A DNA stretch of 64,000 nucleotides. Source: a virus. A program made the position numbers and the translations under genes. Positions 21,289 through 63,436 of this stretch are shown here, piece after piece. Position 1 is the stretch's first letter, and each line of letters starts with the position of its first letter. The stretch is from IMG/VR virus record IMGVR_UViG_3300045988_123629. One strand, 5' to 3'. The notes below the pieces were generated by a model, which ran no database searches, was not told the origin of the DNA, and saw only the letters and a list, made by a program, of their open reading frames with translations.

Positions 21289-21302
21289 GACCTTAACTTT
21301 GT

Positions 21303-44283: not shown

Positions 44284-44336
44284 GGGTATATATTTATAAA
44301 ACTCCGGGCTACGCCCTTCGTTTTATAAATATATAC
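44284..44336. repeat. Perfect 18-bp-stem palindrome (GGTATATATTTATAAAAC...GTTTTATAAATATATACC) with a 17-nt GC-rich loop.
   Basis: Direct reading. Both arms are exactly reverse-complementary. It is followed by a micro-ORF with an AAAGGAG RBS. Confidence 0.6.
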
Positions 44337-45716: not shown

Positions 45717-46094
45717 TCACTTATTGATGAAAGTATTCAAAAAATCGGCAATTACATCATCATCAGTTCTCTTGACCTTCTTAACCTTTACTTTTTCACT
45801 CTTGGGAAAAAGCACGTCAAGAAGATCGTTAACCCCGGTCATAAGACCGTAAACCTCAGCAAAGATGTTCTCCACATCGGACGCGGTCAACGCGGAATCC
45901 TTGTAGCCATTAAGAGCGGCATACTCGTTAATCCGATCGGCGATTTCCTGCGCGAGCGCGGTCTTCCGATCGGCCTGCTTGGTTTCCTTCTCCACCTGCT
46001 TAACCGCATCGTTCAGAGACTTAGCCATTTCGTCCGCAATAGCCTGAGCGTCCTCACCATTTTTCAGACGAGCAATAATATCATTCATATCCAT
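45717..46094 (-). CDS. Hypothetical protein (125 aa, helical, acidic).
   Basis: AAGAGG RBS followed by ATG (MDMNDIIARL...). The promoter is TTGACA-N17-TATAAT at about 46125-46153. The track ORF extends spuriously upstream. Confidence 0.45.
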   Translation of the reverse strand: MDMNDIIARLKNGEDAQAIADEMAKSLNDAVKQVEKETKQADRKTALAQEIADRINEYAALNGYKDSALTASDVENIFAEVYGLMTGVNDLLDVLFPKSEKVKVKKVKRTDDDVIADFLNTFINK

Positions 46095-46610
46095 ATGAAT
46101 ACCTCTTTTCTTATTTTCTATATATATTATATACTTTTTTTTTAAAAATGTCAAGATTTTTTTAAATGAAAACATACGTGTGAAACAATGTAAGGGCGAA
46201 GCAATTTTTAATTAATCATAAAGGCATATGATCCTACGCGGGCTTAAAAAAGTCTTTTTTTATTATTATAACATATTTTTTATAAAAAGTCAATTTTCGG
46301 GATTTTTTTGGGCCATATGGAGAGGTGCTAGAAGTATGAGAAATTTTGCATATGGGTATACCGATCGGAAACTCGGCCCGGCACGTTCCACCGCGGGCCG
46401 GCCAAATAAACTGAGCATTCCGGGATTTTAGTCTGAGTCTATTTTAGACGCTTTTTTCGCGCAAAATTTGCTAAACCTATAATTATTTCGAAATTCCGCC
46501 CGGAGCGTCAGTGATCGGGCGGTCCATTATACCACATTTTCCGATCGGTGTCAATAGGCAAAATACACAAAAAAAATCAGCAGGTTTTAGCCAACCTGCT
46601 GATTGAATAT

Positions 46611-47027
46611 TTATGCAAGAAATGCGCTTACAATTTCATCGAAAACCGTGGGGTTAATGTCCACGTTAAAAAAGCGGTCATTCTTGCGGAACGCTTTGGG
46701 GTATCGTCTAATCAGTTCCGCACGCAACGCGCTTTCCGCACCCTCGGCGGGATAGTCCCCGCAAGAACGGATTCGATGAACTTCAACGCGCGTGATAGAA
46801 TACTTTTTCGAGTATTCGCCGATTTCATCACGCAAGCGCCCTACAACGTCTTTTGCGGACGTGCCTACCTTGTTAAATTCAAGTTTGTTGTTGTTGTAAA
46901 ACTTGAAAAAGTAGACCGCTTGAACGTCTTTCAGATTCTCGCCACAATTAGGCATAAACTCCATTGAAACGGGTGGTCTACCGTCCTTAAATCGGCGTAG
47001 CTTAATAGTAATTTCTTCCATCGGCAC
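46611..47027 (-). CDS. Hypothetical protein (138 aa).
   Basis: AGAGAGGA RBS. A 28-nt hairpin element (47051-47078) lies in the 5' leader. This element is duplicated at 50161-50188. Confidence 0.4.
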   Translation of the reverse strand: MPMEEITIKLRRFKDGRPPVSMEFMPNCGENLKDVQAVYFFKFYNNNKLEFNKVGTSAKDVVGRLRDEIGEYSKKYSITRVEVHRIRSCGDYPAEGAESALRAELIRRYPKAFRKNDRFFNVDINPTVFDEIVSAFLA

Positions 47028-47144
47028 AAAATCCTCTCTATTGATTGAGGTTTACCATCGTTCTCTCAACCATTATTTTTTACCCTTTTTTGCTTGTTTT
47101 TGGGTGAAAAACCGCATTTTTCAGCGGTTTTTCACCCTTTTTCG

Positions 47145-47552
47145 TCAGTTTTTGGGCTTTCGCTTTTGAATCAGGGTCAATTCATAGTCATTTTCGCCCA
47201 CATGGAACGCAATCATGCGCTCGACATTCGTAATTTCTACATTTTCGCACGCATTTTCGCTGTTTTCACGCAAAAAAGTCGCAAGTTCAGCGATAATCGA
47301 GCGTTTTGTGGGGTTTTCCTTGCGCTGTCGCTTCTCAAACTTATAAGCGGTCGGCGCTTTGCGTGTTCCGGTCTTAGAATACTTGTTAGCTTCTTTCAGC
47401 TTTTCCGCGGACAGGTCAAAGTCCTTGGCGATTCCATGGTCAATGTCATCATCGTCCATGAGAATTTCTTTTGCTTCCTCGGCAGTACAATCCAACTTTT
47501 TCATCAGATTATCAATCTTTGCCTGAAAGTCCTTTTCACTCATTTTAGGCAT
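47145..47552 (-). CDS. Hypothetical protein (135 aa), charged.
   Basis: ORF from the track. It is followed by a strong terminator hairpin GGGTGAAAAACCGC...GCGGTTTTTCACCC at about 47100-47140. Confidence 0.4.
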   Translation of the reverse strand: MPKMSEKDFQAKIDNLMKKLDCTAEEAKEILMDDDDIDHGIAKDFDLSAEKLKEANKYSKTGTRKAPTAYKFEKRQRKENPTKRSIIAELATFLRENSENACENVEITNVERMIAFHVGENDYELTLIQKRKPKN

Positions 47553-47652
47553 TTCTTTTGCCCCCTTTCAAGTATGATTATAACACCGCCGTCAGCAAAT
47601 GTCAAGAGAAATTTTTGGGAGCGCCTAATTTTTTTTAGGCGCTCCCCCTGAA

Positions 47653-48030
47653 TCAGTGAGCGAGACGGAAGTAGGACTTGCGCTTGTCCACAATCTTCTC
47701 GACGCCGTTCGCTTCAATCATCTGACGCAGAAGAGCGGAAACGCGCTGGTTGGTGAGGTCGCCCAGACCGTCCACGTTCTTGATGAGGTCGGTCACGGTG
47801 TACAGCTTGTCAGGATTCGCGGACAGCTCAGCGAAGATAATGTCCTTGTAGCCGTCGTTGGCAATCTGATTCGCGGTCGGCTTCTTATCTCCCGAGTTCT
47901 TACGAGCCAACAGGTCAATCTCGTGATTGATAAACTCAACCATAGCGGGGTCAGCCTGAACCTCGCTCATTTTGAGCAGAGCCTCGAAACGGTCGCGCTT
48001 GGTGAGCTTCTTAACAGTAGAAGTAGACAT
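47653..48030 (-). CDS. Winged-helix-like protein. Paralogue of 50276-50650 (about 75 percent identical).
   Basis: AAAGGAA RBS followed by ATG (MSTSTVKKLTKRDRFEALLKMSEVQ...). The promoter is TTGACA-N17-TATACT at about 48066-48100. Confidence 0.5.
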   Translation of the reverse strand: MSTSTVKKLTKRDRFEALLKMSEVQADPAMVEFINHEIDLLARKNSGDKKPTANQIANDGYKDIIFAELSANPDKLYTVTDLIKNVDGLGDLTNQRVSALLRQMIEANGVEKIVDKRKSYFRLAH

Positions 48031-48758
48031 AGTATCAATTCCTTTCTTTGGCGGTAGGTCGCTACCCTTTTGATATATTGAGTATACCACATTTTAGAGT
48101 GCTTGTCAAGAGGTTTCACAAACTTTTCACACGAATTACTACCCCGACCTGACGGATAATTTATTGTTTGTTGATTCAATCTATTTGTCAGCGGAAAACC
48201 GCGTCAAGGATAGTTGGTTCAATCAAACTCACTTTCGCGTTCAACGTTTGGCTTTACAACGTGGTGTATTATGTTTTCTTCCTGTACTTTCTCAAGGTCG
48301 CGCGCCCTCGGATTTCTTGGGCTACTCCCTCTTGACATTTTCTATTGTAGCACACTCGCTGGGATTTGTCAAGAGGTTTTCAAGAAAAAACTCATGAATT
48401 TTTTCTTTTATCCCGTGCGTTCCGCTCCGAAGAGACCTTAACGTAATAGGTGAACGGTCTATTGCTACTTCCAACCGTAGCCCCACACCGACCTGTGGCT
48501 CAGGGGTTCCCCTCTTGACATTATCTATTATAACAGATTGCCCACGGATTACAATTGACAAAATAACCAAATTACGGGAAAAAATTTTCTTTACTTTTGT
48601 GCAACTTTTCTCTTGACAAAATTGGCGGGGCGTGGTATAATGGTGAATTCGGCCCGCTTTGGGCGTTGGCGGGCCGGCCATTTTATCATAAAAGTTCTTG
48701 TTTGTCAATAGACAAAATAGACAAAAAAAACTACCCATTTTTGGGCAGTTTTTTTATT

Positions 48759-49004
48759 TTAGTCCAGCAGGTTAATCTCACCGGGAATTTTGAAAGAATC
48801 AGCGTCCAGTGTGGAATTGTAGTCCTCGGTAAAAAGGTCAATCATTCCACATTCCATGATGTAATTCTGCACCGCCCGCTGAACATTTCTCCAAAGGTCA
48901 ATCTTTCGGCTTTCCTCGCGGGCTTTTCTGGCTTCCTGTATCTGGATAATGAGTTCGTTCAGTTCCTCGTCGGTCATGTAATTCAAATCTAAATCCATTT
49001 TCAA
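48759..49004 (-). CDS. Hypothetical protein (81 aa).
   Basis: ORF from the track. A bidirectional terminator lies downstream at about 48722-48760. Confidence 0.35.
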   Translation of the reverse strand: MKMDLDLNYMTDEELNELIIQIQEARKAREESRKIDLWRNVQRAVQNYIMECGMIDLFTEDYNSTLDADSFKIPGEINLLD

Positions 49005-49288
49005 AACTCCCCTTTAATTGCTTCTTTCCATGCGTCCCAGCCGAATTTTTCCTCGCGGTCTAACTTCTTGCCAATGTCTTTTGCGGTCAGTAGGTCAAGC
49101 TCGTCCGCAATCTCATCTTCAAAGTTTACCCAAGAGTCGTAGGTCTGAATAATGAAAACTTCATCGGCTTCAAAGACGCCACCGCACTCGGCGCAGATAA
49201 TATAGTCATGGTCGATTAAAATGCCCATGTGAGGGTCATTGTCATCAGGGACTACAAAAAGGACTTGTTTAGCGTTCATGTGAAACAC
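49001..49288 (-). CDS. Hypothetical protein (95 aa).
   Basis: GAAAGAGG RBS. The promoter has rc TATAAT at 49309-49314 and rc TTGACA at 49332-49337, with an exact 17-nt spacer. Confidence 0.45.
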   Translation of the reverse strand: MFHMNAKQVLFVVPDDNDPHMGILIDHDYIICAECGGVFEADEVFIIQTYDSWVNFEDEIADELDLLTAKDIGKKLDREEKFGWDAWKEAIKGEF

Positions 49289-49304
49289 CTCTTTCGTTTG
49301 ATGT

Positions 49305-49340
49305 ATTGATTATACCATAGGGAATAGGACTTGTCAAGCC
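49305..49340 (-). promoter_or_regulatory. Representative early promoter of the GC-block class. TTGACA, a 17-nt spacer, then the extended -10 TGGTATAAT. The -35 box is embedded in the terminator hairpin of the upstream gene.
   Basis: Minus-strand reading GGGCTTGACAAGTCCTATTCCCTATGGTATAATCAATACATCAAACGAAAGAGGTG, then ATG. Hairpin GGGCTTGACAAG...CCC. More than 25 instances of this class lie between 45.7 and 63.0 kb (for example 51959-51987, 54087-54115, 56640-56680, 58160-58200, 61295-61335). Confidence 0.7.
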
Positions 49341-49356
49341 CTATTCCCTATTTTTT

Positions 49357-50133
49357 TTAGCTCATGTTTACAACGGGATTTTCCTTAATGTTTCGCATGA
49401 GCGCGCGCTGAAACTCGGTAGGCTTGGGGCGTTCCGCCGTGGGAGTTTTGAAAAGGGACTTTTCCATGGTCTTATGCTGTCGGACGCAATAGCGCAGAAT
49501 CTCAACTTCAATGAGAACATCTTCAAGTCCCGTGTGGGATTCATCAAAGCTGTCCTCACCGCTGATAAAGCGATAAAGAATTTCTGCGGTAAAGCGGAGC
49601 TGTCCGTTCTTGGTCTTGTAGCCGTTCTTTTCGCAATAGTCGCGGTAAGTGGGCATTTTGCCGATAACCTGTCGCGCCATTTTCAACGTGTCCCAAATTT
49701 CGAGGTCGTAGGGAAAGAAATAGCGATACTTGCTTTTCGTGTCCCATCTTTGCGCGTTGTTGCAGGCGTTAAGGTCGAACCGCATATTATGAGCACAGAC
49801 AAAAGAGCAGTTGTAGCGCTCGACACATTCGCAGAACGCAAGACGAATTTCGTAAAGGTCAGCCATAATGCGCGAACCGTTCTTAATGTCCTCAATGTAG
49901 CGGGGAATCTTGTCGGCGTAGTATGCGGACTGCATGAGGTCGCGTTCGTAGCAGAAAATGTCGCGATTCACAAAGGAATGAGTTTCATAAACATTTCCCT
50001 TGGAATCAATGACCGCCCAGCCGAAGTCATAGGGAAGCACATTTGACATATCCAGCTTATCGCCGTCCTGAATGGTGTTTGCGGTTTCCGTGTCCAGCAT
50101 AATGCCGTAGTTTTTGCGCCTATCAATACCCAT
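49357..50133 (-). CDS. DnaQ-like 3'-5' exonuclease (DEDDh family).
   Basis: Exo I MLDTETAN, Exo II CAHNMRFDLNAC and Exo III HTGLEDV(L) are in order. The RBS is AGGAGACG. The duplicated 28-nt hairpin element lies in the leader at 50161-50188. Confidence 0.7.
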   Translation of the reverse strand: MGIDRRKNYGIMLDTETANTIQDGDKLDMSNVLPYDFGWAVIDSKGNVYETHSFVNRDIFCYERDLMQSAYYADKIPRYIEDIKNGSRIMADLYEIRLAFCECVERYNCSFVCAHNMRFDLNACNNAQRWDTKSKYRYFFPYDLEIWDTLKMARQVIGKMPTYRDYCEKNGYKTKNGQLRFTAEILYRFISGEDSFDESHTGLEDVLIEVEILRYCVRQHKTMEKSLFKTPTAERPKPTEFQRALMRNIKENPVVNMS

Positions 50134-50275
50134 CTTATCGTCTCCTATTGGAAAAGTAGATTGAGGTTTACCATCGTTCTCTCAACCTCTGATAATAGTA
50201 TAGCACTTTGCTATTGGTTTGTCAACAGTTTTTTTTGTAGGGCAGGGGATTTTTTTATCCCCTGCCCTTTTCCCT

Positions 50276-50650
50276 TTACGCGAGGGAGAAGTAGGACTTG
50301 CGCTTGTCAACCGTCTTGACAACGGTGTTGGCCTCAATCATCTGACGCAGAAGAGCGGAAACGCGCTGATTGGAGTAGTCCGCAAGCTCGGGAACGCCCT
50401 TGATGAGGTCGGTCACGGTATACAGCTTGTCAGGGTTTGCGGTCATCTCGTCCAGAATGACCTGCTTCACAGTGTCATTCTCCATCTGCTTGGCCGTGGG
50501 CTTCTTGTCGCCCGCGTTCTTCTTGGCGAGCAGTTCAATCTCATGCTCGATGAACGCCACCATGTCAGGATTTGCCTGAACCTCGCTCATTTTGAGCAGA
50601 GCCTCGAAACGGTCGCGCTTGGTGAGCTTCTTAACAGTAGAAGTAGACAT
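50276..50650 (-). CDS. Winged-helix-like protein. Paralogue of 47653-48030.
   Basis: 124-aa ORF. Nearly identical N-terminus MSTSTVKKLTKRDRFEALLKMSEVQ and C-terminus NQRVSALLRQMIEAN..VK.VDKRKSYF. Confidence 0.5.
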   Translation of the reverse strand: MSTSTVKKLTKRDRFEALLKMSEVQANPDMVAFIEHEIELLAKKNAGDKKPTAKQMENDTVKQVILDEMTANPDKLYTVTDLIKGVPELADYSNQRVSALLRQMIEANTVVKTVDKRKSYFSLA

Positions 50651-51139
50651 AGTATCAATTCCTTTCTGGTTTTTAAGACTGTCCTTGTCTTTGATGTAGT
50701 TATTATACCATAAGCGGAGCAGGTTGTCAATAGTTTTTGCAAATTTTTTTTAGGGGCGGTCGCGAGGTTTATTACTATACATCTTGTTTATACCTACCTT
50801 TATCTATACTCATAAACCAATTCATTTTACTAAACCAAATTAGTCTTTAAGGCGGTGGGCGAGCATTAGAAGTCATCTTGTTTTTACCTCTCTCATTTGA
50901 TGTATTCATTATACCCTACGTAGAACGGTTTGTCAAGGGGTTTTTCAAACTTTTTTTGAAAGTTTGTTCGGCACGCCACGCTTGGAACATTCCGTCGGAT
51001 TTTGGTATAATGAATGGTCAAGGGAACTGCCTTTCCGAAGGTCTTACTCTTTCCTCCTGACATTATGTAGTATAGCAGATTGGTAATGATTTGTCTATTG
51101 GTAAAATAGCTAAATAACGGGAAAAAATAAAATTGAAAT

Positions 51140-51300
51140 TTGTGCGAAATTTCTCTTGACAAAAATGCTGGCAGGGTGTATAATGGTAAATTCCGGCCGT
51201 AGCGCGCGGAAACGGCCGGCCCATTATATCACATTCAAGGAATTTTGTCAATGGTCAAAGTAAACAAAAAAATCTCCCCATTTTTGGGGAGATTTTCTTT
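51140..51300. promoter_or_regulatory. Intergenic module. A plus-strand promoter (TTGACA-N17-TATAAT, 51147-51181) and a minus-strand promoter (TTGACA-N17-TATAAT, about 51228-51262) face each other across a pure-GC hairpin (51193-51219). The module ends in a bidirectional terminator (51270-51298).
   Basis: Direct reading. Homologous modules occur at 48600-48780, 53440-53600, 55230-55390, 57210-57520 and 59430-59600. Variants occur at 46290-46560 and 62900-63130. Confidence 0.6.
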
Positions 51301-51722
51301 TAGCCAATCACACTGACTTCGGTTCTGACAGGCGTTACCATCTTGTCGCGCGAGAACTCGCGAACCTGACCTGTTTCAAGATTCACCGCGTAGCAATACT
51401 GCGAACCTCTCGACCGGACAAACGGCGTGTTGTTGTTGCTGTCAATTTTGAGATACATTCCCATACCGCTACCGTTAGAGCGCAGAGTGGTGAACGTGCC
51501 ACCGCTGAGAATGTTGATAATTTGGAGCTGACCCTTAGTGCCAAAATTTACTTTCATTTTTATTTCTCCTCTCTTAAAGCAGATGTTCCTTGACCCATTT
51601 TGCGGTCACGGTCGCGCGTTCTTTGGTGATAACAGTTTCATAGATGAAAAGGTCGTCATCAATCTTTTCAACTACTTTTCCGATGATTCCAACATCAACC
51701 CAAAAATAAGGCATCATTTTTA

Positions 51723-51930
51723 TCACCCCTTTGAACCGACCGAGAAGATGGACTGCAAAAGCACGAGAATAATCCAAATTGCGAGTGCCAGCTTCCACGA
51801 GAACACGATGACGAAAGTGCCGATTGCGGTAATACCGAGGGCGGGAAGAAGCCAACAGAGAAGCCAAACCAGACCAGAGGTAGCAAGGAACGAAAATGCG
51901 AGAGACAGCAGAATCAAAAGAACAAACATT
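51723..51930 (-). CDS. Small membrane protein (68 aa, two TM helices).
   Basis: AAAGGGGAAAA RBS followed by ATG (MFVLLILLSLAF...). The promoter has rc TATAAT at 51959-51964 and rc TTGACA at 51982-51987. Confidence 0.45.
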
Positions 51931-51983
51931 TTATTTTCCCCTTTCATTTGATACATTTATTATACCATTGGAGTAGGGTTTTG

Positions 51984-52484
51984 TCAAGCCCTTTTCTCCA
52001 AAAGTTCCGAAAGTTTTTCGATAATGTTTACTGCGGTTGGGTCAATGGTTTCACCCAAGTGCCAACCATTCCGAACCTTTTCATTATCGTCAACCAAGAT
52101 GGACACGTCATAGCGGTCGCGCACGCTGTCGGCCTTAGTCGCGCCATATTGGACGCCGTGGAAGTGGTCATAGTGGAAGCCCTGTTCTTCAAGCCACGCG
52201 CGCTTTGCTTCACGCACGAGGTTTTTGTATTCCTCGCTCGAATCTTTGGAAAGCCAAGTGATGATGTTGATTTCCCAGCCCTCGGCGCGGAGAAGTTCGC
52301 AAACCTCATTCAATTCAGCCATATCACACATGGGAACGGCAGTCCGATAGGGCTTAGGATTTTCCGAACGGAGAAGTGCAAGCCAATCCTTGACGCCGTA
52401 GAGGTCAGCAATAGTGCCGTCCATGTCAAAGTTGATGGAACGTCGAGTGGCCACAACGTGGGACTTGATGTAAGTGATTTTCAT
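51984..52484 (-). CDS. HAD-superfamily hydrolase, 5'(3')-deoxyribonucleotidase-like.
   Basis: Motif I FDMDGTIADL (DxDGT). Downstream ITWLSKD and ILVDDN motifs. 166 aa. Confidence 0.6.
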   Translation of the reverse strand: MKITYIKSHVVATRRSINFDMDGTIADLYGVKDWLALLRSENPKPYRTAVPMCDMAELNEVCELLRAEGWEINIITWLSKDSSEEYKNLVREAKRAWLEEQGFHYDHFHGVQYGATKADSVRDRYDVSILVDDNEKVRNGWHLGETIDPTAVNIIEKLSELLEKRA

Positions 52485-53603
52485 AGGTATTACCCCTTTC
52501 CTTTACTGTATCTGTATTATACCATACATCTGCGCGGTTGTCAAGAGAAATTTTAGCAATTTCCCGCTTTATTTATCCATTCTTTCCATTCATCTTTGGC
52601 AAACTTTTTATATTCTTCTTGCCAAATACCACCTGCAATGGCTTCTTTTACTGCATCATCAATAGAAAGATATTGGTTGGGAAAAACAAAGTCATCACAA
52701 AAGAACCGAGTTCGACCAAAGAATTTGCGGTTAGGGCGGATAACTTCATCAACAGAGATATAGATTAGCCCATATGATTCATCGTTGTATACCTTAACCT
52801 CAAAGGTTCTTCCCTCATATTCATAAGTTTTCGGCTTACTCATAGCGTTTGCCCTCCTTTACTATGCTTGTATTATACCACTATTGGATTTGCTTGTCAA
52901 GTATTTTTTTCAAAATTTTCGCGGTCTTTCTCAATACACGAAAGATAAGAAATTAAGCAAAATCAGCACAGGAATAGCGTAGACGATATTGAAAGAGTCC
53001 CACCCGAGACTTTCACAGGAATAGGCAAAAATAAAGCCAAAAACGAGGCCGAAAATGCCGATTAAAATAATCATTCTAAATCCTCTATATGACCGTAGTG
53101 TTCGTTGATATGCCATTCAAGATAGGTATTAGTCGCAATCTGAATTTCTCTATCTAACCAGTCGTAAAAGTCCTCGGGGTCGCGGGCCATGCGTTCGTCA
53201 ATAATATCAGCAAGAGAAACGCGATGGGCGATAAACTCTGAAATATCAAGAGAATCCATAGAAGAAAGAAGTTCTTCTACACATTCTCCGCGAGTAGAGA
53301 ACTTTTCAGTAGAAAAATCGTGAGTGTAATACATTGTTTGTATCCCCTTTCTTTACTGTATCCATAGTATAGCAGATTATTACATTCTTGTCTATTGGTA
53401 AAATACCCAAATTCGGGAAAATAATTAGTTGGACTTTTGGCTAAATTTCCTATTGATAAATTGCTGAGATGGTGGTATAATGGAAATTCCGGCCGTGGCA
53501 TGCGCAAACGGCCGGCCATTTTATCACACTATTGGATTTTTGTCAATAGGCAAAATAAATAAAATTTTGAGACGAGATTTGGTTATCTCGTCTCAAAATA
53601 TTT

Positions 53604-54056
53604 TTAACGTTCGGACACAATGCTGAGGTAGCGGACAATCATGTCCATTTCGCAACCCATGTCCTGCTGGTCGCAAACCGCATAACCCACAAGGTCGCCG
53701 TCCGCACAAATCGGGTAAACGCCATAAGTGTTATTGAAAACAAACGGCTTTCTTTTAAAATCCCACTGGGTCGAAACATAAGGCGGAAAGTTTTCCATAC
53801 CCCGCAGTTTCACGATAGTATCATAGATTGCGATGGGACGCAAACCGGAATTTGATGCCATTGTAATAGCGGTTCGCAGAGCTTCTTCGGTCAAAGAGCC
53901 AAGCACCGAATACCTCTGAAAACAAACGCAGTTGTCTTCTCCAAGGAAGATTTCAAGCGGGTCTCCCTCGCGAATCTTCAAAGTTCGGCGAATCTCTTTC
54001 GGAATGACCACACGTCCAAGGTCATCAATTCTGCGGATAATACCAGTAGCTTTCAT
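53604..54056 (-). CDS. AbrB/SpoVT-family (swapped-hairpin) DNA-binding protein with an extended C-terminal domain.
   Basis: The N-terminus MKATGIIRRIDDLGRVVIPKEIRRTLKIREGDPLEIF closely matches the AbrB N-domain consensus. The promoter has rc TATACT at 54087-54092 and rc TTGACA at 54110-54115. Confidence 0.65.
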   Translation of the reverse strand: MKATGIIRRIDDLGRVVIPKEIRRTLKIREGDPLEIFLGEDNCVCFQRYSVLGSLTEEALRTAITMASNSGLRPIAIYDTIVKLRGMENFPPYVSTQWDFKRKPFVFNNTYGVYPICADGDLVGYAVCDQQDMGCEMDMIVRYLSIVSER

Positions 54057-54120
54057 TTTAATTTTCCCCTTTCACTTGATACGTTAAGTATAGCAGAACA
54101 AAAGGCTTTTGTCAAGCCCT

Positions 54121-54603
54121 TTATTCAAGATTTTTGCTTTCCGCGACAAAATATTTTGCTTCGTATTGATTGGCAATAGCCTTGACTTTTGCGCTTTCCT
54201 TTTGAGTTGCGCAGTAAAAATTGAAAAGCGTATGTTTATCGCTCAATTCAATGTAAGAGTGTGGAACATCATGCAAATCAAAGTCAATGGTATTAGTGTA
54301 TTTTGTCGGGACAGTTAGCTCGACTTTCCATAACCGGTCTTTGCGGGCTTTCTCTTCAATCCACTTGACAAAGTAAACGCCCACAAAATTACAAACAGCA
54401 GTAATAGCCATTTTTAACCAGATAGGCATACCGTCCGCGGAAGTCAGCACAATCACATAGGAATAAAATCCATATGTGATGGCATTGATAAGAGAAGCAC
54501 TAAACTTCCCGCCGTTGACAGTCAAGATGCTTTTGATAGTTGACAGAATCACATTCACCGCCGTGCAAAGCGCGAACAGAAGAATTGTATTCATTATTAT
54601 CAC
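54121..54603 (-). CDS. Membrane protein (about 4 TM helices).
   Basis: ORF from the track. Hydrophobic helices throughout the N-terminal 110 aa. Confidence 0.4.
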   Translation of the reverse strand: MIIMNTILLFALCTAVNVILSTIKSILTVNGGKFSASLINAITYGFYSYVIVLTSADGMPIWLKMAITAVCNFVGVYFVKWIEEKARKDRLWKVELTVPTKYTNTIDFDLHDVPHSYIELSDKHTLFNFYCATQKESAKVKAIANQYEAKYFVAESKNLE

Positions 54604-57600
54604 CCTTTCCTTTTTCTATTATAATAATATCATATTATAATAGAAATGTCAATAGAGAGTTTTTAATTTACTCTTTTAATTTTTCTAATAGGTCATCAGC
54701 ACATTCATAGCTGATACTTCTGCGGTCGCACTCGTTGGACAAAGGACAACAAGCGCAGTCATTAAAGGTTTCCGTCCAAACGCGCAACCAGTCAATCAAA
54801 CGCAAAGTGTTAACTTCCTCATACATTGTTATCACTCTCCTTTACTCGGACAAAAAAGACCTTGTTATAGATTTTATTTGCTTTAAGGTCAATCCAAAAA
54901 TACACGTTTCCGCATACTCGATAGATTTTACAAGTCTCTCCGCTAACCTTTTTAACTTCCTCAAACTTCTCTTGCGTGGTGGGGTGGAAAACCGTCAGTT
55001 TGAGAAATATGCAATAGAAAGCCAAAGGAACAAAGCCGATAATCAGAGCAATCCATGCGAGAACGTCAGTTAAGGTATTTTCCCATTCGCACCATTCATC
55101 GGTGATTGTAGCGAACGCAATACCCACGCAAAACGCGAGAATCAACCAATACCATGCCCCCATTATTTTATTCCCCCTTTATTTGTTGTATACATCTTAC
55201 CACATTATAGGATTTTTGTCTATTGGCATTTTACACAAAAATTCGTGCGAAAATTTGTTGAACTTACCTCTTGACAAAAAACTCGGCGCGCCACAATCGT
55301 CCGCGCGCCGACAATTTTATCACATTCAAGGAACTTTGTCAATAGTCAAAGTAAACAAAAAAAATCACCCAATTTGGGTGATTTTTCATTTAGTTTCCTA
55401 CGGCTTCGAGGTCGACGAGAATGGGAACGAGCTTGTCTTCAAGAAGCGCGACACGCTCAATCATTTCATTTGCTGCTGTTCCGCCCGACGGGTATCTCTT
55501 CTGAATGCCGTATCGAGCCATTCTGCACACCGTTTCAACAACCTCGCTCAGTTTCTCATTTTTCATTTTTCTTATCTCCATTCAATTTATTTTTTGGAAA
55601 GGGTGGCGGTTGTTTCAGGCACAACCGCCAAAGCCATAGGAAAGGGGGAGAAAAAACACGAACAAAAGTTCGGTTTTGTCAAGGGATAATCAGTTCCGCG
55701 TCATAGACAGGCCGAACCATGCAGGGCGCGCCAAAGCAGTCGAGATTGTAAGTGTCTAAATTGAGAGCGTTCCATTCTTCTGCACCGGTATCTTCATCAA
55801 CCACAGTCGCGATTTTGATGTAATAGACGTTTCCAGAAGCAGGGTCTTGAAAAATCATACCCTCGGGGAGGTCTTCAAATGCAACCATTTTGTTGCTATG
55901 CTTAACAGTAATTTTCATTTCGTTCACCCTTTATAATAGTATTTGTAAGCCCATTCAATGATTTCATGGCTTGTGGTAGTCCATTCCTCTTTGGGACTAT
56001 CGAACTTTTCCGCATACTTTTTGATGTAGTTATTATACTCCATGCGCGCGGTGTCGTATGCTCCAATAGCCACAATTAAAGCGTGTTTCGCTTCTTCGGC
56101 GTCGGAGACTGCTTTCTTGCGGTCGGGGCAGTCAGGATAAAGGTTAATCACCCCTACGCGCGTAATGGCTTGCCTTGTCTTTTCATAAAGGCGGTCGCGC
56201 TCTTCCCAAACCTTATAAAGCATTTCGTCTGTGTGATTCTCATAGGGATTGAATTTCTTTTCTTTTTTCTTACCGAACATTTTTCTTTTTCTCCTTTTCC
56301 TGTTTATTCCACATTCTATCGAAGAACGCATTTGCGAGGACACGCTTGTAAAGGTTGTCAGGCATGGGGCGCTCACCGTGCTTGTTTCTCCATATCGCGG
56401 TGATTTTATCAATATCCGCGATATAGGCGGTAATGAGTGTGCCATCGGAAGCGCTACGAACGAGAAGAACGCCGGTTGTAGTGATAGTGTAGAGAATATC
56501 GTTCTCAACGCTGTCGATATATGGTTCGCCGATTCCTACATTATCGTAGATGAAGAGCAGACGGTCAATGCGGTCTTGCGTGGCGTGTTTTGACATTTTG
56601 ATAAGCATTTGTTTTACCTCTTTCTTTTCCTCTTGGATTGATTGTATTATACCATATGGGGAGGGGCTTGTCAAGCCCCTTTAATATAATTGTTCCCCAT
56701 CGTGGTAGCGCTCATATTCCGCTTCAAGGAAGTCGAGAATAGTTTCAAAGTCGTCTGCATCTGCGGGGTCTGCAAAGACCTTTTCAAGGACTTCGTTAGT
56801 GTGTCTGTTGTAAACTCGAATCATATCCATTTTACTTACCTCTTTCTTGATTGTATATGTATTATATCATGCGAAAGGGCTTTTGTCAAGCCCTTTTTAT
56901 CAGAAATGATAATTTCTGATGATGGCGTCGAACTTGGGAGCATATACGTTTTCCCACTGTTCTTCAAGAGTCTGGTCATTCGTGCGATATAATTCCCACG
57001 AGACTGCGCCATAAGCGTTATGCTTGAAAAACTCGGCGTCGCAGGGCATCTGCTCGGCATAGAGAAGCTGGGTCTTGATAAAAGAGTGAATGTTGTAGTT
57101 AGTCATTTTATTTACCTCATCTTTCCGTTCCCCTTGGAACAATTATAGTATAGCAAATGCTTAGGCATTTGTCTATTGACGGATCACACAAAATTGGGAA
57201 AAATAATTTGTGCAAATTTTCGCAACTTTTTGCTTGACAAATTGCTGGCCCTGTGATATAATGGAAATTCCGGGCGCGTGGGCCGTGCGCGCCCGGCCGA
57301 ACAACCATTGTTAAAATTTTAACAAAAATGAAATAGAAAGGGCGCGGTAATTATCGGCTACCGCGCAAACCATAGTATGAAAAATTTGTTTACTACTTCA
57401 AGAGGCTTACCATTTCCTCTTGACATGATTATAATACCACAACGGGGCGAGTTTGTCAATAGTTTTTTGAAAAAAAATTTCAGGCGAGATAATTAAATCT
57501 CGCCTGAAAATTATACGTCCCACATGGCTTCCGCAATCCAGAAGTATTCATAGCGGAGTTTGGACTGAATCGCAAACAAGGCGTTCGCAAGTTCTCCGCC

Positions 57601-57709
57601 GTCTTTGTAGTCTTCCGCGTCTGAAAATTTCTGACTTTCTTTCGCAATTCTTTGAGCCAACTTTTCAAGGGCGTCTGCCTGTTCTCTCAAAGCCTGCGGG
57701 ATAGGTTTT

Positions 57710-58066
57710 TCATTCATTATTTGTTTCCCCCTTTGCAAAGTTAGAGGTTAGCTCTAACGTATGTCCGCATTCATCGCAATACCAATAGTAATAAACTGTT
57801 CCATACCGGCCATGAGAAGCATTTACAAATTTCATTTCATTTCCGCAGATGGAGCAATAGCCGTCATTCCATGCTTTTTTGTCGGCATTGTGGTCAGCGA
57901 CTACTGCGCCCGTCATGCCATAGCCAAGAGCGCACGAAATGAGAAGACCAACCAACAGTCTGACTACTGGGTGAGACTTTTCCATGTTGCACCAACAGAC
58001 AAGGCAGACAAATAGCGCAAGGACTGCGCTAAAAATTCCGCCAACAATTAAAAATTCCGTTCCCAT
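57710..58066 (-). CDS. Membrane protein with a C-terminal zinc ribbon.
   Basis: ORF from the track. Two TM helices, then CSICGNEMKF...YCDECGH. Confidence 0.4.
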   Translation of the reverse strand: MGTEFLIVGGIFSAVLALFVCLVCWCNMEKSHPVVRLLVGLLISCALGYGMTGAVVADHNADKKAWNDGYCSICGNEMKFVNASHGRYGTVYYYWYCDECGHTLELTSNFAKGETNNE

Positions 58067-61000
58067 TTTTATTTCCCCTTTTCACATTTAATGCATTGAG
58101 CGTGTGTTCCGCACTTTCCATCGCAATAAGGACATTCCATTATTTTATTCCCCTTTCCTTTGATACATTAAGTATAGCAGAAAAAGGGCTTTTTGTCAAG
58201 CCCTTTTTCTTATTTTTTTTAATTTTCTTTTCTAATGGAATAGTAGGTTCGGCTTCCCTTTTTGGTGTAGGTCAACTTTTTGTCAATCCAACAAAGATGA
58301 CCGCAATACCATGCAACGGTGGCGCAAGGATATTCTTTGCCTGTCTCACGGTAAAGAATAAACTGGATTTCCGTAGGGCACAGGGGCTTTTCCGCCTTTG
58401 AGAGAACGTCGAGCATCATGTTTTTCATCATGGTGTTGCGGATTTCCTGTTTCAGTTTCCGCGCTTCCTGAGCTTCCTCGAATTTCTGGCAAGCCCGTTC
58501 CGCCTGAAACACGTCCATTCCGGTGAAAGTGCCATCATCAAGGCATTTTCTCAAAAGACTATAAACTTCAAAGTTCATCATGTTAGCATTTCCCTTTCCT
58601 TTATTGTGCTTTTATTATAGCATCTGCTTTTGAATTTGTCAAGAAGTTTTTTGGAAAAAAGAGGGAAAAATTTTCCCTCTTTATTTATCCCCAATAGATC
58701 GAAAGAACGTTGTCAATGTAGCTGGCTTTATAGCCATAATTCTGCATAATATCTTTGCAAGCCTGCCTGACGCCCTTGTCATTTAATGAAGCAAGAGAAC
58801 ACTCGTAAAGTGTTTCTCCCGTTCCTGCCACACGCTCAATTTCCGGCATGATGTGGTCTCCGATAAACGCACGCGCGAGGGCATTATTTTTAGCTTGGAT
58901 TTCTTTGCGGACTTCTTCGGCTTTGCGCGTCATTTCATAAGCATATTTAATTTCCATGGTGTTTCTCCCTTTCCTTTGATGCTTTTATTATAGCATAGAG
59001 GGCTTGTTTTGTCAAGCCCTCTATTTAATTTTTTAGCAATAGGCCAGATTCCCGCGCGCCCAGCCATATACGCTGATTTGATTGCACGCCTTGCCGATTT
59101 CAAGTGCCTGCTTCTTGGTCTGCACTCTCTTGGACTTGTCAACATAATAGATGCCGTTCGCAAGCCACACACCGCAGTTTCCGCCGAAGTCCTTGACCGC
59201 ATTGATAGCTTCGCGGGCGGTCTTACACTCAACGCCGTTGGTAGCGACCTGCCAGCCGGACTTGTAGTTGACTTTCTTGCCATATTTGAGAGTCATGCCG
59301 TCGTTTTCAGCGAGTTTGAGAATAGAACGAATGTTAATCATGTTGTAAATCCCTTTCCGGTTTGGTAGGTTTTCCTTCCCTTACTGTGATTATAGTATAG
59401 CACCGATTCGGGATTCTGTCTATTGACACTTTGCACAAAAATTTGCCCCAAAAATTTGTTGAATCTGCCTATTGACAAAAACTCGGCGCGCCAGGTCCGT
59501 TCGCGCGCCGGCCGATTATACCACAAAATTTTGAAATTGTCAATAGGTAAAATGCACAAAAAAATCTTCCCATTTTTGGGGAGATTTTCATTTTTATTTT
59601 TTAGCCATCAACATAAACGATAAGAACATCATCTTTGGCTTTCAAACCGCTGACAGGCAATCCCAGCACCCATTCTTCGCTTACGCCCAAAACCTCACCA
59701 TTCAGAGTCATGCGACCTTTGCGGTCTTTGAGGTAGCGCCCGCAAGTGTTTTCATTTATCACTTCGATGCCGTTCCCCTCATAGAACATCAGCGCGCCCT
59801 TTACCAGACCAATCACATTTTTAACCATGCCCAAAGTCATTTTGTCAACCTCTTTCGTTTTTAATGTCGTTCCCCTTGGAACAATTATAGTATAACATGA
59901 GCTATAATAAAAGTCAATAGGCAAAATGTATAAAAACTCGGCAGGATTTTGTATGTCCTGCCGAGTTTTTTTAGTTCAAACTCTCGATGACTTCGCCGGT
60001 CAGTGCGTCGATAACATCGACCGAAACAACGTTGTCCGCGTCGATGAACTTCTTTGCAAGGATACAAGCGTTTTCCCGCCCGAACACCGGAATTTCATGG
60101 CGATAATAGAATACATCGCTTGCCTTGTAGTTGTAGTAGTTGATAGAAACATTAAATAACATTTGGTTTATCCCCTTTCCTTTTATATTCTTATTATACC
60201 ATAGATTCGGGATTTGTCAATAGTTTTTTTGAAAAAAGTTTGAAAAAAAATAAGAGCGTTTCCGCCCTTATTTCTCATAAACGATAATGTTGTTGCCTAA
60301 CTTTTCAACGCGAGAATCTTCACAAAAGTGATAGGTGAAGTCCGCTGAAAGATGTTTGAGAAATTCGCGTCTCCATTCGCGGGACTTCGGCTCTAATTCA
60401 AAGAGAATGTAAAGCGTTTCCTCTAACCGGTCGAGAAAGTTTTCAGTGTCCGCGATGTTGAATTTGCCCGCGAGCTTCGGAGCAGAAGAAGTGCCAATAA
60501 TAAGAATGTTGTAAGTAGTCATGGTTTTTATCCCCTTTCTTATTGTATCTACATTATAACATTTGCTTCTGGATTTGTCAAGAGTTTTTATAAAAAAATA
60601 AGGGCTTTTTTCAGCCCTTATTCTTAGCACTTGACCCACGTGTTGACTAACTTCCGCTCAATGGTCGCGGGCTTCGTCAGAGTGTTTGCATACGCCTGCG
60701 CTTCTTTCTTAGTCTTAAAGTAAGTCGGCAGGTAATAGCCAAGGCGAGCGCTGTAATTATCTTCGGTGTAAACTCTGTATTTCATCTTTTGTTTTCCCCT
60801 TTCTTTACTGTAATTATAGTATAGCACTTACTTCTGGATTTGTCAAGGGCTTTTATAAAAAAATTAAGGGCTAAAAAGCCCTTAATTTAACACCGCGACG
60901 ACCTCGCCGTTCATGCAGGCGTGGACATCGAACTCCACGCCCTTATAGGTGTCGGAGTAAAGATACGTCCAGTCATCGCCGAGGACATAGGCCAGGGGCT

Positions 61001-62516
61001 TGACAGGAAGAACGCCGTCGAGAAGAGTCTTGATAGTAGTCATTGAATTAACCTTTCTGGTGTTTGGGATTTTCCTTTCCCTTTCTGATATTATAATACC
61101 ACAGACCGCAAAGAATGTCAAGTGTTTTTTTCAAAAAAAAAGAGAAGTTTTTCAACTTCTCTTTCTACGGCGAATCGCTCTCTTTACGCGGTGCTCCACG
61201 TATTCGATGAGCGCACCCGCGCCGATAACACCGACATAGATAGCGAGAAGAACAAGACCATCGTGAGTAGACATTTGATTTACCTCTTTCTTTCTTTTGA
61301 TGTATTCATTATACCAGACAAAGGGGCTTTTGTCAAGCCCCTTTTTTATTTTTTTACAGTTCTTTTCCAACCTTAACAAATACGATTTTCTCCGGTAAGA
61401 CTTCGATGCCCTTAATGCCCGCTTCATTGACTTCCTTGTTCGTGCAAGTCCACCCAAACTCATCTAATGCGTCCCATTCATCGTTCCCGCTGGGAGTCCA
61501 AGTGTTGAATCCATCATCAATCATCACGTCATAGCCCTTGCTGTAAGTCTCCATAATCTGTTCGATAGTCATTTGTTGTATTCCCCTTTCCTTTGATGAT
61601 ACTATTATAGCATTTCGGGATAGGAATGTCAAGTGGTTTTTGGCAAAAAATGGAAAAAATTTTGCTTTAACGCTTTACTGTGGTAAAGTTCGGGCTGGGA
61701 CGCCCTACACGCGCACTACGGCGCAAGAGAAAGAGCGGGAAGCCCGCTCCCGCCCTTAATACATTTCGCTATTGGGTTCAACTGTGAAATACTCGACATT
61801 CCGCAAGTCGAGCTTGCCATAGGATTTGTCATTATACATTGTAGCACCTGTCGCGAGTAAGTCATTCATCTTACCTGCAATCTCCATAGCGCGCTGTTCC
61901 TCGAACGCCTGCTGGAAGAGATAGCCCTGACCGCCCTTAGTGTAATAAACAATGCCGTAAATCATTTTTCATTCCCCTTTCCTTTTGTGATTATAGAATA
62001 CCACACTCTAACTGATTTGTCAAGACCTTTTTGAGAAAAAATCTTTGTTAATTTTTTAACAATCTACGCCGTTGGAAAGAGAGCATTACTGCTCCCTTAT
62101 TCTGCGTAAAGACTTATCAATTCATTTATCTTTTCAATGGCTTCATCAATGTCATCGAGGTAGTTGTCTGCTAACATACTTGCATGGCTGGCTTCCTCGT
62201 AATCATCATACGCGTCGCTGAGTTCCTGTGTGCCAAACTTGTCTGCCTGTTCGAGTGCATCTACCTCGTGCCATGCCCTCGACATCTCACCACGCTTAAC
62301 CTGACAGTCGCGGAACGCCTGCTTGCTTTCGTTCATTAAACGTTCCTTTTCTGCTTTGAGAGCCTTGTAAAAATCCTGATTAGTCATTTGAGTATTCCCC
62401 TTTCTTATTGTATCTACATTGTAGCACATTACCGCGCATTTGTCAAGACCTTTTTTACTCTTCTCTGCTTGTTAATTTTTTAACAATCTTCGCCGATCCG
62501 CAAGAAAGAGAGAGAC

Positions 62517-62879
62517 TTAATAAGCCTCTCTCCATACCTTAATGATTGTATCATCTTCCACAGTATCAGTGTCATTGTCGTTAATCCACAAGAGCAAGAA
62601 GTCGTTGTCATCAATGTTGAGTGCTTCCACGTTCCACAGGTTGTCCTGCTCATCAATGAGCGTCAGGGTATCGTCTTCGCGTGCGTAGACCTCTGCGCCG
62701 ACGAAACGAATGCTTCCGCGCTCCGTACCTGCACCGCACCAATTCTCAATGACCGAGAGGTCGTAGGACTGGGGTGCTTCCTCACAGGCTTCCGCCGTTG
62801 TGTGGTCGTGGAATCCGAAGAAAGACACGGAAAGAATGATGGCAATGGCCATGGTGATGATTTTGGAAACGTTCTTCAT
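62517..62879 (-). CDS. Secreted hypothetical protein (signal peptide).
   Basis: N-terminus MKNVSKIITMAIAIILSVSFFGFHDHTTAEA. A hydrophobic signal with an AEA cleavage-type site. Confidence 0.4.
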   Translation of the reverse strand: MKNVSKIITMAIAIILSVSFFGFHDHTTAEACEEAPQSYDLSVIENWCGAGTERGSIRFVGAEVYAREDDTLTLIDEQDNLWNVEALNIDDNDFLLLWINDNDTDTVEDDTIIKVWREAY

Positions 62880-63436
62880 TTTGATTTACCTCTTTCTTTT
62901 TGATGATACAAGTATAGCACATGACTACTGGATTGTCAATAGTCATTTTGCACAAATGTGATGGCGTAGTTTCGGGTATTTTGACTATTGTGCATTATGA
63001 CGAAGTTTCGGCGAGAAATTTGTGCAAACTGCTGATTTTTATAAAATTCGGCTCGCCACTACCGCCAGCGAGCCGAGCAACGTTTACCGGGGTGTTTGTG
63101 CGGGATGGCATCGTGCGTTCCGCAAAAGAGCGAGAGTAAGGCTGGTATACTCTCAGAGAATAAACGAGTTAGAACCTTATGGATGGGGGTGTATTTCGGG
63201 AAAAAATTTTTTTTGATTTGTGTTTTTTCTTTTGCGTGGACAAAACACAGTCTAAATCAATTTTCAATTTCAAAATACGATTTAAAACAACAAATCAATT
63301 TTCAATTTCAAATTACGAAGAATAATTTTCGATTTTAAATCACGACTTCTTTTTTCTACCTCTTTTAGGTTTTTCACCCCACATAAGAGTGTATAATCCA
63401 GAAGTAGCAGAATAAGTAGCTTTCTGCTGATACTTT

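Follow-up and report, generated by a model that had tools for sequence, protein, structure and literature searches.

The stretch of DNA considered here, referred to below as the window, comprises 64,000 nucleotides of the IMG/VR virus record IMGVR_UViG_3300045988_123629, and the element in question is a module of about 250 bp that recurs between small genes in one part of it. This repeated module, a putative early-gene boundary cassette, is real and lies far beyond what chance would produce. Its 27-nt hairpin consists, in the all-G/C form, of a 7-bp stem of G and C only enclosing 13 nt (an eighth pair is usual), and perfect hairpins of this form occurred eight times in the window, all inside a block at 46.2-63.2 kb, whereas 300 first-order Markov simulations of that block gave 0.007 per run and never more than one. 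A scan of the whole window for all-G/C stems of at least 6 bp returned nine sites, all of them between 46.3 and 59.6 kb and eight of them exactly 27 nt long.

The genes flanking the modules all lie on the minus strand and, read in their sense, the order of parts is the stop codon of the upstream gene, a bidirectional terminator, a promoter (P1), the 27-nt hairpin, an inverted promoter (R), about 58 bp, a third promoter (P2), a ribosome-binding site and the next gene. P1 and R are therefore face to face, with their -10 boxes 36-39 bp apart in the copies M1-M3, and R and P2 point away from each other; the interval between these two (48-49 bp in two copies) contains a conserved TTTGTGCAA-like box and a GGGAAAAA patch. 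All three module promoters have in common an upstream box, TTTGTGYAWWTTGCC-N2-TTGACA, and GG directly follows the -10 in 8 of 10 module promoters compared with none of 33 ordinary gene promoters. A G immediately after the -10 lengthens the life of the open complex in Escherichia coli. The original prediction, made from the letters of the window, had placed six copies and two variants of the module at intervals of about 2 kb, each with a bidirectional terminator, and scans for hairpins, promoters and terminators found all of these in their predicted places, with 1.8-2.5 kb from hairpin to hairpin. When relatives were searched, the module proved to be conserved in related phage contigs and in the GenBank phage Phass-1, which has two modules with the same order of terminator, P1, hairpin, R and P2 and the same upstream box.

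Taken as a whole, the module might well be a boundary cassette of promoters, terminator and stem-loop in which the face-to-face promoters would be mutually exclusive, the R RNA would restrain P1, P2 would be basal and the stem-loop would cap both RNAs; this is the reading that we tentatively adopt here.

In M1 the bidirectional terminator (48724..48755), which ends the upstream gene at 48759-49004, is followed by P1 (48680..48708, minus strand; TTGACA-N17-TAAAAT then GG), the G/C hairpin (48650..48676), R (48613..48641, plus strand; 12/12 positions matching the consensus, with an extended -10 and GG) and P2 (48527..48554, minus strand; TTGTAA-N16-TATAAT), and the RNA predicted from R would extend from about 48647 to about 48757. 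The corresponding parts of M2 are at 51266..51299 (terminator, both strands), 51223..51251 (P1, minus strand, 12/12), 51193..51219 (G/C hairpin), 51156..51184 (R, plus strand, 12/12; predicted RNA from about 51190 to about 51300) and 51069..51097 (P2, minus strand; TAGACA-N17-TATACT). M3 has its bidirectional terminator at 53564..53599, where it ends an AbrB/MazE-domain gene (53604-54056), and then P1 (53518..53546, minus strand; TTGACA-N17-TAAAAT then GG), the G/C hairpin (53489..53515), R (53453..53481, plus strand; TTGATA-N17-TATAAT, 11/12, with TTGACA in relatives; predicted RNA from about 53486 to about 53603) and P2 (53366..53394, minus strand; TAGACA-N17-TATACT), which stands before the gene at 53071-53334.

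The copies at 55.3 and 59.5 kb (M4 and M6) were expected to keep the -35 of the plus-strand promoter and to have lost its -10, and this is what they contain. M4 consists of a bidirectional terminator (55359..55387), P1 (55314..55342, minus strand; TTGACA-N17-TAAAAT), the 27-nt hairpin (55284..55310) followed in gene sense by AGTTTTTTG, a remnant of R (55271..55276, plus strand) with a -35 TTGACA and no -10, and a P2 read from the sequence as a weak 9/12 match (55194..55222, minus strand; TAGACA-N17-TAAGAT) before the gene at 54819-55163. In M6 the terminator (59561..59588, both strands) is followed by P1 (59515..59543, minus strand, 12/12), the 27-nt hairpin (59484..59510) with AGTTTTTG next in gene sense, the R remnant (59472..59477, plus strand; -35 only, no -10) and P2 (59394..59422, minus strand; TAGACA-N17-TATACT), before the gene at 59033-59341.

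A convergent minus-strand promoter had been claimed for every copy. It is present at the hairpin of M0, M1-M4 and M6 and absent from that of the 57.2-57.5 kb copy (M5), in which the minus promoter (57431..57459; TTGACA-N17-TATTAT) lies about 135 nt from the hairpin, beyond an inserted unit of about 95 nt that it is predicted to drive; this minus-strand unit starts with ATGTCAAGAGG and ends at a terminator-like hairpin (57342-57366). The other parts of M5 are the bidirectional terminator (57478..57509), the G/C hairpin (57270..57296), R (57234..57262, plus strand, 12/12, predicted start about 57267) and P2 (57147..57175, minus strand; TAGACA-N17-TATACT). M0 is the last module. It comprises a bidirectional terminator with a 12-bp stem and T runs on both strands (46575..46604), P1 (46526..46554, minus strand; TTGACA-N17-TATAAT then GG, 12/12), whose -10 ends 3 nt before the hairpin, and two 27-nt hairpins, of which a (46496..46522) reads CCGCCCG / 13 nt / CGGGCGG and b (46374..46400) has no adjoining promoter in this genome. 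At the right edge, the first hairpin of the block (63048..63076) is 29 nt long and not all-G/C, with a 27-nt core of CGGCTCG / 13 nt / CGAGCCG extended by one pair at each end and with ATTTTAT next in gene sense.

The original prediction had also noted that the 5' halves of the copies can be aligned. The alignment is real, and the conserved TTGTCTATTGG that figured in it can now be identified as the TAGACA -35 region of P2, which lies on the minus strand just ahead of the downstream gene. Small open reading frames (ORFs) within the modules had no conserved start codon with a ribosome-binding site when the sequence was read for them, and the AUG in the M3 loop is unique to M3.

The 27-nt hairpin

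The 7+13+7 geometry was found in all 91 hairpins of the window and of 16 further loci (L001-L016), which between them have six different stems, and in a wider set the stems also include A-T and T-A pairs, as in CCGGTCG/CGACCGG, CGGACCG/CGGTCCG and CGGCTCG/CGAGCCG. In 72 distinct hairpin sequences, in the picking of which the first seven stem pairs were used so that the pairing of these seven is partly built in, 97.2% of the cells were paired and changes on both sides had occurred at seven of the eight pairs; such pairing was reached by none of 500 shuffles and fell to 28-43% when the partner was slid by 1-3 columns. The eighth pair, which was not used in the selection, was formed in 68 of the 72 as CG, UA, GC, AU or GU, and RNAalifold independently predicted the helix. 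As judged from these sequences, the hairpin is selected as a structure.

The same substitutions bear on the suggestion in the original prediction that the modules might be protein-binding operators, in which case the 7-13-7 inverted repeat would be the double-stranded DNA site at which a dimeric regulator, from the phage or the host, turns both promoters off. Its half-sites are 20 bp apart from centre to centre, or about two helical turns, stem positions 1, 3, 6 and 7 are nearly fixed (C.G..CG), and a gene for an AbrB-type DNA-binding protein is present in the block. The three other stem positions, however, always change together across the 72 distinct hairpins, A-T substitutions included, and independent half-sites would not co-vary; an operator of this kind is therefore disfavoured, and we regard it as very unlikely. 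The loops vary and share no common sequence, though YGT often occupies loop positions 8-10 of the plus strand.

In gene sense, a tail of A-R-T-T-T follows every type of hairpin, those without promoters included. In M1-M3 it reads AAUUUCC, AAUUUAC and AAUUCAC, and a run of 5-6 U is confined to the copies at 55.3 and 59.5 kb. This raises the possibility of an attenuator or insulator, in which the hairpin and its ARUUU tail would be a back-up terminator for sense read-through, a role suggested for the stem-loops of promoter-early stem-loop (PeSL) cassettes, while the P1 RNA, which would lack the base of the stem, would escape. The presence of the tail after all hairpin types, with AGTTTTTTG and AGTTTTTG in the copies that have P1 only, and the distance of only 0-4 nt between the P1 -10 and the stem are in keeping with this idea, as is the interpretation as an attenuator of a PeSL subclass in which the stem-loop lies just past the -10 (PMC2839356). 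But a strong canonical terminator is already located 45-50 nt upstream, the U tract is just 2-3 U in M1-M3, and R would be left unexplained. Nor does the hairpin qualify as an intrinsic terminator (a G/C stem, a loop of about 3-8 nt and at least 5 U directly after the stem); the terminator scan, which covered loops of 3-8 nt, did not list these hairpins, their loops being 11-13 nt. Attenuation thus seems an improbable role. A search of Rfam gave no family for the modules: in the window only tRNAs passed the gathering threshold, and at E values up to 1 the region 46-63.5 kb gave only sub-threshold, terminator-like matches.

Four types of hairpin could be distinguished, with both promoters, with P1 only, with R only (sometimes with its own terminator 40-60 nt off) or with neither, and each type is conserved among close relatives. 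Because it is found with the minus promoter only, with the plus promoter only or with neither, the hairpin is an element in its own right and more than the 5' end of one small RNA.

Promoters and predicted RNAs

Plus-strand matches to the consensus promoter at 11/12 or better are rare in the region 46-64 kb; there are only four, at 48613, 51156, 53453 and 57234, and each abuts a hairpin, in agreement with the TTGACA-N17-TATAAT that had been predicted there (12/12 at three of them and 11/12 at 53453). The -10 of R ends 7-8 nt before the stem, so a plus-strand RNA would start where the hairpin does, at its base. The -10 of P1 ends 0-4 nt before the stem, which would place the start 3-5 nt inside the stem and leave the P1 RNA with a stem of 5-7 bp and no overhang. 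For 115 hairpins taken from protein-anchored loci, which were collected regardless of promoters, a promoter of at least 10/12 was present in the expected place for P1 in 79 and for R in 51, compared with a background of 0.7-1.2% at random positions of the block. The scores were bimodal (8 or less, or 10 or more) and, among diverged copies, the hexamers were 0.92-0.93 identical while the spacers were 0.44-0.45 identical. On this evidence from sequence, the plus-strand promoters are genuine consensus matches that are maintained by selection.

The two promoters are not the arms of one long structure. The central 10 nt of the two spacers within a module were 0.24 identical, compared with 0.23 in a cross-module control, and this chance likeness implies that two promoters have been kept rather than one long fold-back. 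A fold-back of the whole palindrome, serving as an RNase III site or as an origin like a single-strand origin (sso), was accordingly rejected, the palindrome also being missing from the P1-only and R-only types. The same two results count against a related proposal, that in single-stranded DNA a palindrome of about 110 nt rebuilds a promoter for primer synthesis, in the manner of the M13 minus-strand origin or plasmid ssoA. The module is indeed a large imperfect palindrome of two promoters, and some loops contain AGCGT, which resembles the CS-6 motif of ssoA, but with arms that are not complementary outside the promoter elements we find this explanation hardly credible.

In modules with two promoters, a terminator follows the hairpin at a distance of 58-108 nt in 57 of 62 distinct cases. 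The plus-strand RNAs are predicted to fold into a hairpin at the 5' end, a small one in the middle and the terminator, with z scores of -4.2 to -7.8 for three of the four. The structured plus-strand RNA of about 110 nt and the promoter interference that had been suggested for these modules are thus plausible, given the start geometry, the terminators and the folds. The word antisense is less apt, as the predicted plus and minus RNAs overlap for about 25 nt at their shared start and in the terminator, and the overlap covers no ribosome-binding site or coding sequence.

These RNAs could themselves be the point of the module. If it were a family of small-RNA genes, the R RNA would be the product and P1 would be secondary. 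The RNA could act in trans, for example by decoying or sponging up a host factor or defence, or else in cis, where the shared terminator would link it to the 3' end of the upstream mRNA. The predicted start of R exactly at the hairpin base, the good folds, the conservation of the R hexamers while the spacers drift, and the occurrence in other phages of R-only units of about 70-90 nt with their own terminator (L027 at 5152, L062 at 982 and L014 at 2392) all fit this explanation. Against it, P1 is the commoner partner of the hairpin (79 compared with 51 of the 115), hairpins without R are stably conserved, the body of the RNA past the hairpin simply complements P1 and lacks conservation in modules without P1, Rfam gave no match, and there is no common loop sequence that might act as a seed. 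We consider a small-RNA family possible, if rather unlikely.

On the interference reading that we prefer, the strong bidirectional terminator would close the upstream unit, and because the -10 boxes of the two near-perfect promoters, of the sigma-A/sigma-70 type, are only 36-39 bp apart, an RNA polymerase on P1 or R should exclude a polymerase on the other. The 27-nt stem-loop would be the initial transcribed region common to both. R would give a self-contained RNA of about 105-120 nt, made up of the 5' G/C stem-loop, about 45 nt and the terminator, and would hold down P1 and read-through by occupancy and collision, while P2, which is weaker, lies beside the gene and diverges from R, would provide basal downstream expression; whenever P1 won, extra transcripts with a leader of about 190 nt would be made. 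The stem-loop would stand at both 5' ends, complete in the RNA from R and as 5-7 bp without a 5' overhang in that from P1, and would shield the RNA from decay in a Firmicute host. Since about 100-250 bp of module is repeated, the copies would double as homology patches for the swapping of early-gene cassettes.

Several points weigh against this reading. We infer the firing of either promoter from its match to the consensus. The hairpin is kept without R (at 55.3 and 59.5 kb, and in all close relatives), without an adjacent P1 (at 57.3 kb) and without both (at 46374), so its function cannot depend on the promoter pair as such. A 5' stabiliser has no need of a constant 27-nt size, an 11-13-nt loop or a semi-conserved YGT in that loop, all of which would hint that a protein or another RNA recognises the hairpin; the run of U after the hairpin in the P1-only copies would tend to stop P1 transcripts and not to stabilise them. 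Neither is the difference in spacing between the two promoters (7-8 nt as opposed to 0-4 nt) universal, as both -10 boxes are 2-3 nt from the stem in the Phass-1 modules and in one other locus (L017) the asymmetry is inverted relative to the genes, the promoter with the long spacing being the sense one. When G-U and A-C mismatches were used as an indicator of the folding strand, the counts of 5 and 9, in which several matches are probably spurious, favoured no strand. The constant size of the hairpin, its large loop and its retention without both promoters are explained by no reading yet. The hairpin could be a structure-specific recognition element rather than a by-product of promoter architecture, and would then be either (a) the crossover site of a dedicated, integron-like exchange of early-gene cassettes or (b) the core of multi-copy, very stable small RNAs that titrate a host RNA-binding factor or defence through their variable G/C loops. 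The constant size, the C.G..CG positions, the YGT, the swapping between positions of a unit of about 30-37 nt that holds the hairpin, and the retention of the hairpin without both promoters fit such an element, which we nevertheless judge an unlikely account of the module.

Exchange of modules and genome context

An unbiased search of IMG/VR for pairs of consensus promoters that face each other at a distance of 25-50 bp gave 127 matches, which fell into two populations. About 45 had a G/C-rich hairpin between the -10 boxes (G+C of at least 0.58, -13 kcal/mol or lower) and came from many samples; the remainder were A/T-rich and unrelated. No such modules were found in the 30 kb examined of Enterococcus phage EF1, the nearest isolate. 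Thirteen close relatives that were aligned to the window are mosaic with respect to it, with breakpoints at intergenic promoters and at modules or hairpins. One relative (L009) has a chimeric module in which the hairpin of M3 stands between the P1 flank of M4 and the R flank of M5, and the same hairpin occurs with P1 in L002 and L007 and without it in L001 and L003. In L005-L009 a single hairpin joins the left flank of hairpin b to the right flank of hairpin a, compared with the two hairpins of the window (46374 and 46496), which are 122 bp apart. At the M1 and M2 positions alternative hairpin alleles are swapped while the flanks are 88-95% identical, and one allele is found at both positions. 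Hypermutation of the loop, which was considered on account of the high diversity of the M1 and M2 loops (0.29-0.37 compared with 0.05-0.12 in the flanks), was rejected, as this diversity at least partly reflects the exchange of hairpin alleles between module positions. Part of the P1 -10 region moves with the alleles; for one M1 allele no donor was identified, and the other positions have no excess diversity.

Junctions of this sort would be expected if the hairpin, in single-stranded DNA, were the target of a structure-specific recombinase or nuclease that moves early-gene cassettes, like integron attC sites or repetitive extragenic palindromic (REP) elements. Besides the constant size, the C.G..CG positions and the semi-conserved YGT, this explanation has in its favour that junctions lie exactly at hairpins, that the same hairpin is found with different left flanks, that an indel of about 122 bp is bounded by two hairpins, and that the hairpin with about 5 nt on either side has been exchanged between positions. 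Comparison of 29 ORFs of the window with Pfam, and of 10 of them also with PHROGs (64 of about 193 kb of genome), revealed no integrase, Y1 transposase or HUH enzyme, however, and no target duplications or conserved core sites were found beside the hairpins; moreover, many breakpoints lie at ordinary promoters without hairpins, as would be expected from plain homologous recombination. A dedicated recombination site is accordingly, in our estimation, quite unlikely.

Relatives also differ from the window in the gene content of the block. Three of them (L143 at about 4409-4723, L147 at 4416-4730 and L148 at 4778-5092) have an extra block gene of 104 codons with weak matches to T5orf172/MUG113 (GIY-YIG-like nuclease), and other relatives have extra ORFs of 47-109 codons beside modules, which shows that cassettes are gained and lost.

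The block in which the modules lie is distinct in composition, with a G+C content of 42-44% compared with 30-41% (mostly 33-38%) elsewhere in the window. It contains about 40 small minus-strand genes, mostly without family matches, each of which has a strong Shine-Dalgarno sequence and a near-perfect TTGACA-N17-TGnTATAAT promoter in front of it on that strand. In the window as a whole the credible ORFs are almost all on the minus strand, and matches to the promoter pattern numbered 79 compared with 15.7 expected, again nearly all on the minus strand. From the types of promoter and ribosome-binding site, the block looks like an early region transcribed by the host RNA polymerase in a phage of a Firmicute. 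Outside it a conserved promoter of another type, whose A/T spacer is conserved as well (TTGACATTTTTAAAAAAATAATATATAAT), recurs, for example, at 12046, 19376, 20844, 21414, 32907 and 46126.

An array of 21 tRNA genes at 9.3-21.4 kb (9341-21371) includes a suppressor with the anticodon CTA (10004-10093; called Pyl by ARAGORN), and its presence suggests that TAG encodes an amino acid in some portion of the genome, as it does in the 'code 15' phage Phass-1. Phass-1 belongs to a 'code 15' clade with a predicted Clostridia host (PMC10607447). A megablast search with 48-60 kb gave no DNA matches to deposited phages, and the nearest isolates at the protein level are the Enterococcus phages EF1 and VRE9 (38% identity) and the uncultured gut phage Phass-1. 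Close relatives are frequent in gut metagenomes as contigs of about 193 kb, of which the window represents 64 kb; the index of the collection lists an 87-aa protein encoded beside one module under 294 blocks, many of them on contigs of about 193 kb.

As candidates for a partner protein of the module, the Pfam searches (block genes; 29 window ORFs) and PHROGs searches (10 of those ORFs) gave only AbrB/MazE-domain and exonuclease-like proteins. The gene with the AbrB/MazE-type (SpoVT-AbrB) DNA-binding domain at 53604-54056 (minus strand), directly upstream of M3, encodes the sole recognisable DNA-binding protein found in the block.

Some arrangements of promoters in the block resemble parts of the module. 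A relative of the module that has no hairpin consists of a terminator (59931-59970) followed by a promoter (59889-59917) with the same upstream box, TTTTGCCTATTGAC, and the leader after this promoter, ATTGTTCCAAGGGGAAC, is identical to that after P2 of M5 (57120-57146). In many ordinary gene promoters the -35 TTGACA lies within the loop of the upstream terminator hairpin (AAGGGCTTTTGTCAAGCCCTTT), which fuses terminator and promoter into about 25 bp; such fusions, at 51973-51995, 54101-54123, 56875-56897, 58185-58207 and 61322-61344, resemble another PeSL subclass. Four minus-strand promoters (at 48554, 48372, 51097 and 57459) have ATGTCAAGAGG (ATGTCAGGAGG in one) 5-6 nt after the -10, at 48511-48521, 48328-48338, 51053-51063 and 57416-57426 (minus strand), respectively, so the transcript would start at or next to the AUG. 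Each of these units might be a small RNA or a leaderless small ORF of about 18-40 codons; the reverse complement of the motif is the CCTCTTGACA -35 region, and one such unit is absent from a relative (L004). A gene of about 125 codons, present in two copies (47653-48030 and 50276-50650, minus strand) with 73-80% DNA identity over 300-390 bp, lies in each case downstream of a module (M1 and M2, respectively) and of the ATGTCAAGAGG units; it has no Pfam match and belongs to a PHROG family of unknown function.

Four tetranucleotide palindromes are scarce in the block. GATC occurs 7 times compared with 40.6 expected and GTAC 4 times compared with 36.3 expected in 46001-63400, a depletion much stronger than in 1-46000, and CCGG (29 compared with 47) and GGCC (28 compared with 40) are also below expectation, with 11 and 15 of their sites, respectively, in or adjoining hairpins. 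The shortage may represent avoidance of restriction in the DNA that is exposed first. No functional conclusion was drawn from the CCGG and GGCC palindromes of the hairpins as restriction sites, their clustering there being due to the composition of the hairpins. Just outside both edges of the block (44638-44779, 44285-44337 and 63250-63340) are a tandem array of three or more 40-bp units (CCTCGTTTATAGGGGTATTATTGACTTCGGGCATAAATGC), an inverted repeat of 25 bp and several direct copies of AATCAATTTTCAATTTCAAA, which might mark a replication origin or genome end. Far from the block, the ORF at 4800-5306 (minus strand) has an N-terminal major tropism determinant domain (Mtd_N, E = 1e-12); receptor-binding proteins of the Mtd type are diversified by retroelements in some phages.

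Comparison with known systems

The original prediction held that no annotated feature type accounts for the modules, but an analogue has been described. PeSL cassettes of T4-type phages consist of a strong early promoter and a G/C stem-loop between the ORFans of plastic regions, where they mediate modular shuffling (Arbiol et al. 2010, PMC2839356; PMC4122927). The modules resemble them in being repeated intergenic cassettes in a hyperplastic region of small ORFans, with a gene content that is mosaic among relatives. They also have what appears from its sequence to be a strong early promoter of the sigma-70 type (here with an extended -10 and a match of 11-12/12) preceded by A/T-rich sequence, a G/C stem-loop at the promoter, as in the PeSL subclass that has it just after the -10, a predicted terminator function for the upstream unit, and recombination between copies that gives rise to indels, replacements and chimeric cassettes. 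The stem-loop is present here with covariation, and its loop size and U tract are atypical of a terminator. PeSL cassettes differ in having a single promoter, whereas the modules have a second, facing promoter, a third promoter and a separate bidirectional terminator, and the stem-loop of the modules has a fixed 27 nt with a large loop. The lineage and sequence are also unrelated, this being a gut phage with a predicted host of the class Clostridia and an apparently recoded TAG, without a match to deposited phages and with EF1/VRE9 and Phass-1 as its nearest isolates; for these reasons the cassette, by analogy, is best described as a functional counterpart of PeSL and not as a member.

Face-to-face promoters are known from the switches of coliphage 186 (pR/pL), P2 (Pe/Pc) and P22 (Pant/Psar). 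The RnaG/icsA locus is a cis-antisense unit with convergent promoters (PMC2879508). The modules would share with these systems convergent promoters close enough to interfere and a short antisense RNA as one product. They differ in that the known cases are single developmental or gene-specific switches in which the antisense RNA covers a coding or leader target, whereas the modules occur in at least six copies per genome at operon boundaries, their overlap consists of the 5' hairpin of about 25 nt and the terminator, and no repressor is known for them.

Stem-loops that stabilise RNA from the 5' end include the aprE leader and the early RNA stabiliser of phage SP82. By analogy, the modules may offer the same combination of a stable stem-loop with almost no 5' overhang in a class of host that degrades RNA from the 5' end; unlike the hairpin of the modules, however, such stabilisers need no constant size or large loop and are not common to two convergent promoters.

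REP elements, the bacterial interspersed mosaic elements (BIMEs) and integron attC sites are G/C-rich imperfect palindromes linked to rearrangements. Like them, the element described here is intergenic, lies between gene cassettes and is conserved more in structure than in sequence; it differs in being much shorter than attC and in being embedded in promoters. Neither a REP-associated tyrosine (RAYT) transposase nor an integron integrase was present among the 29 ORFs of the window searched as described above, and the flanks lack GTAG and R/L boxes. The literature searched yielded no description of the element, and neither promoter nor hairpin occurs as a word in the paper on Phass-1 (PMC10607447).

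The phages concerned are uncultured and frequent in metagenomes of the human gut, and the cassette provides a map of their early transcription units together with exact predictions of starts and ends. If the face-to-face pair is an interference switch, it would be a compact, multi-copy means of gating host-takeover genes by the host RNA polymerase alone, and the promoter and hairpin parts might serve as tools for engineering in Firmicutes. The idea drawn from PeSL cassettes, that regulatory cassettes act as linkers for modular shuffling, is extended here from T4-type coliphages to an unrelated Gram-positive gut clade, which would suggest a general solution. New in the module are its third promoter, the fixed geometry of 27 nt and a second consensus promoter placed opposite the first on the far side of the stem-loop; its parts and its logic have precedents in the systems considered above.

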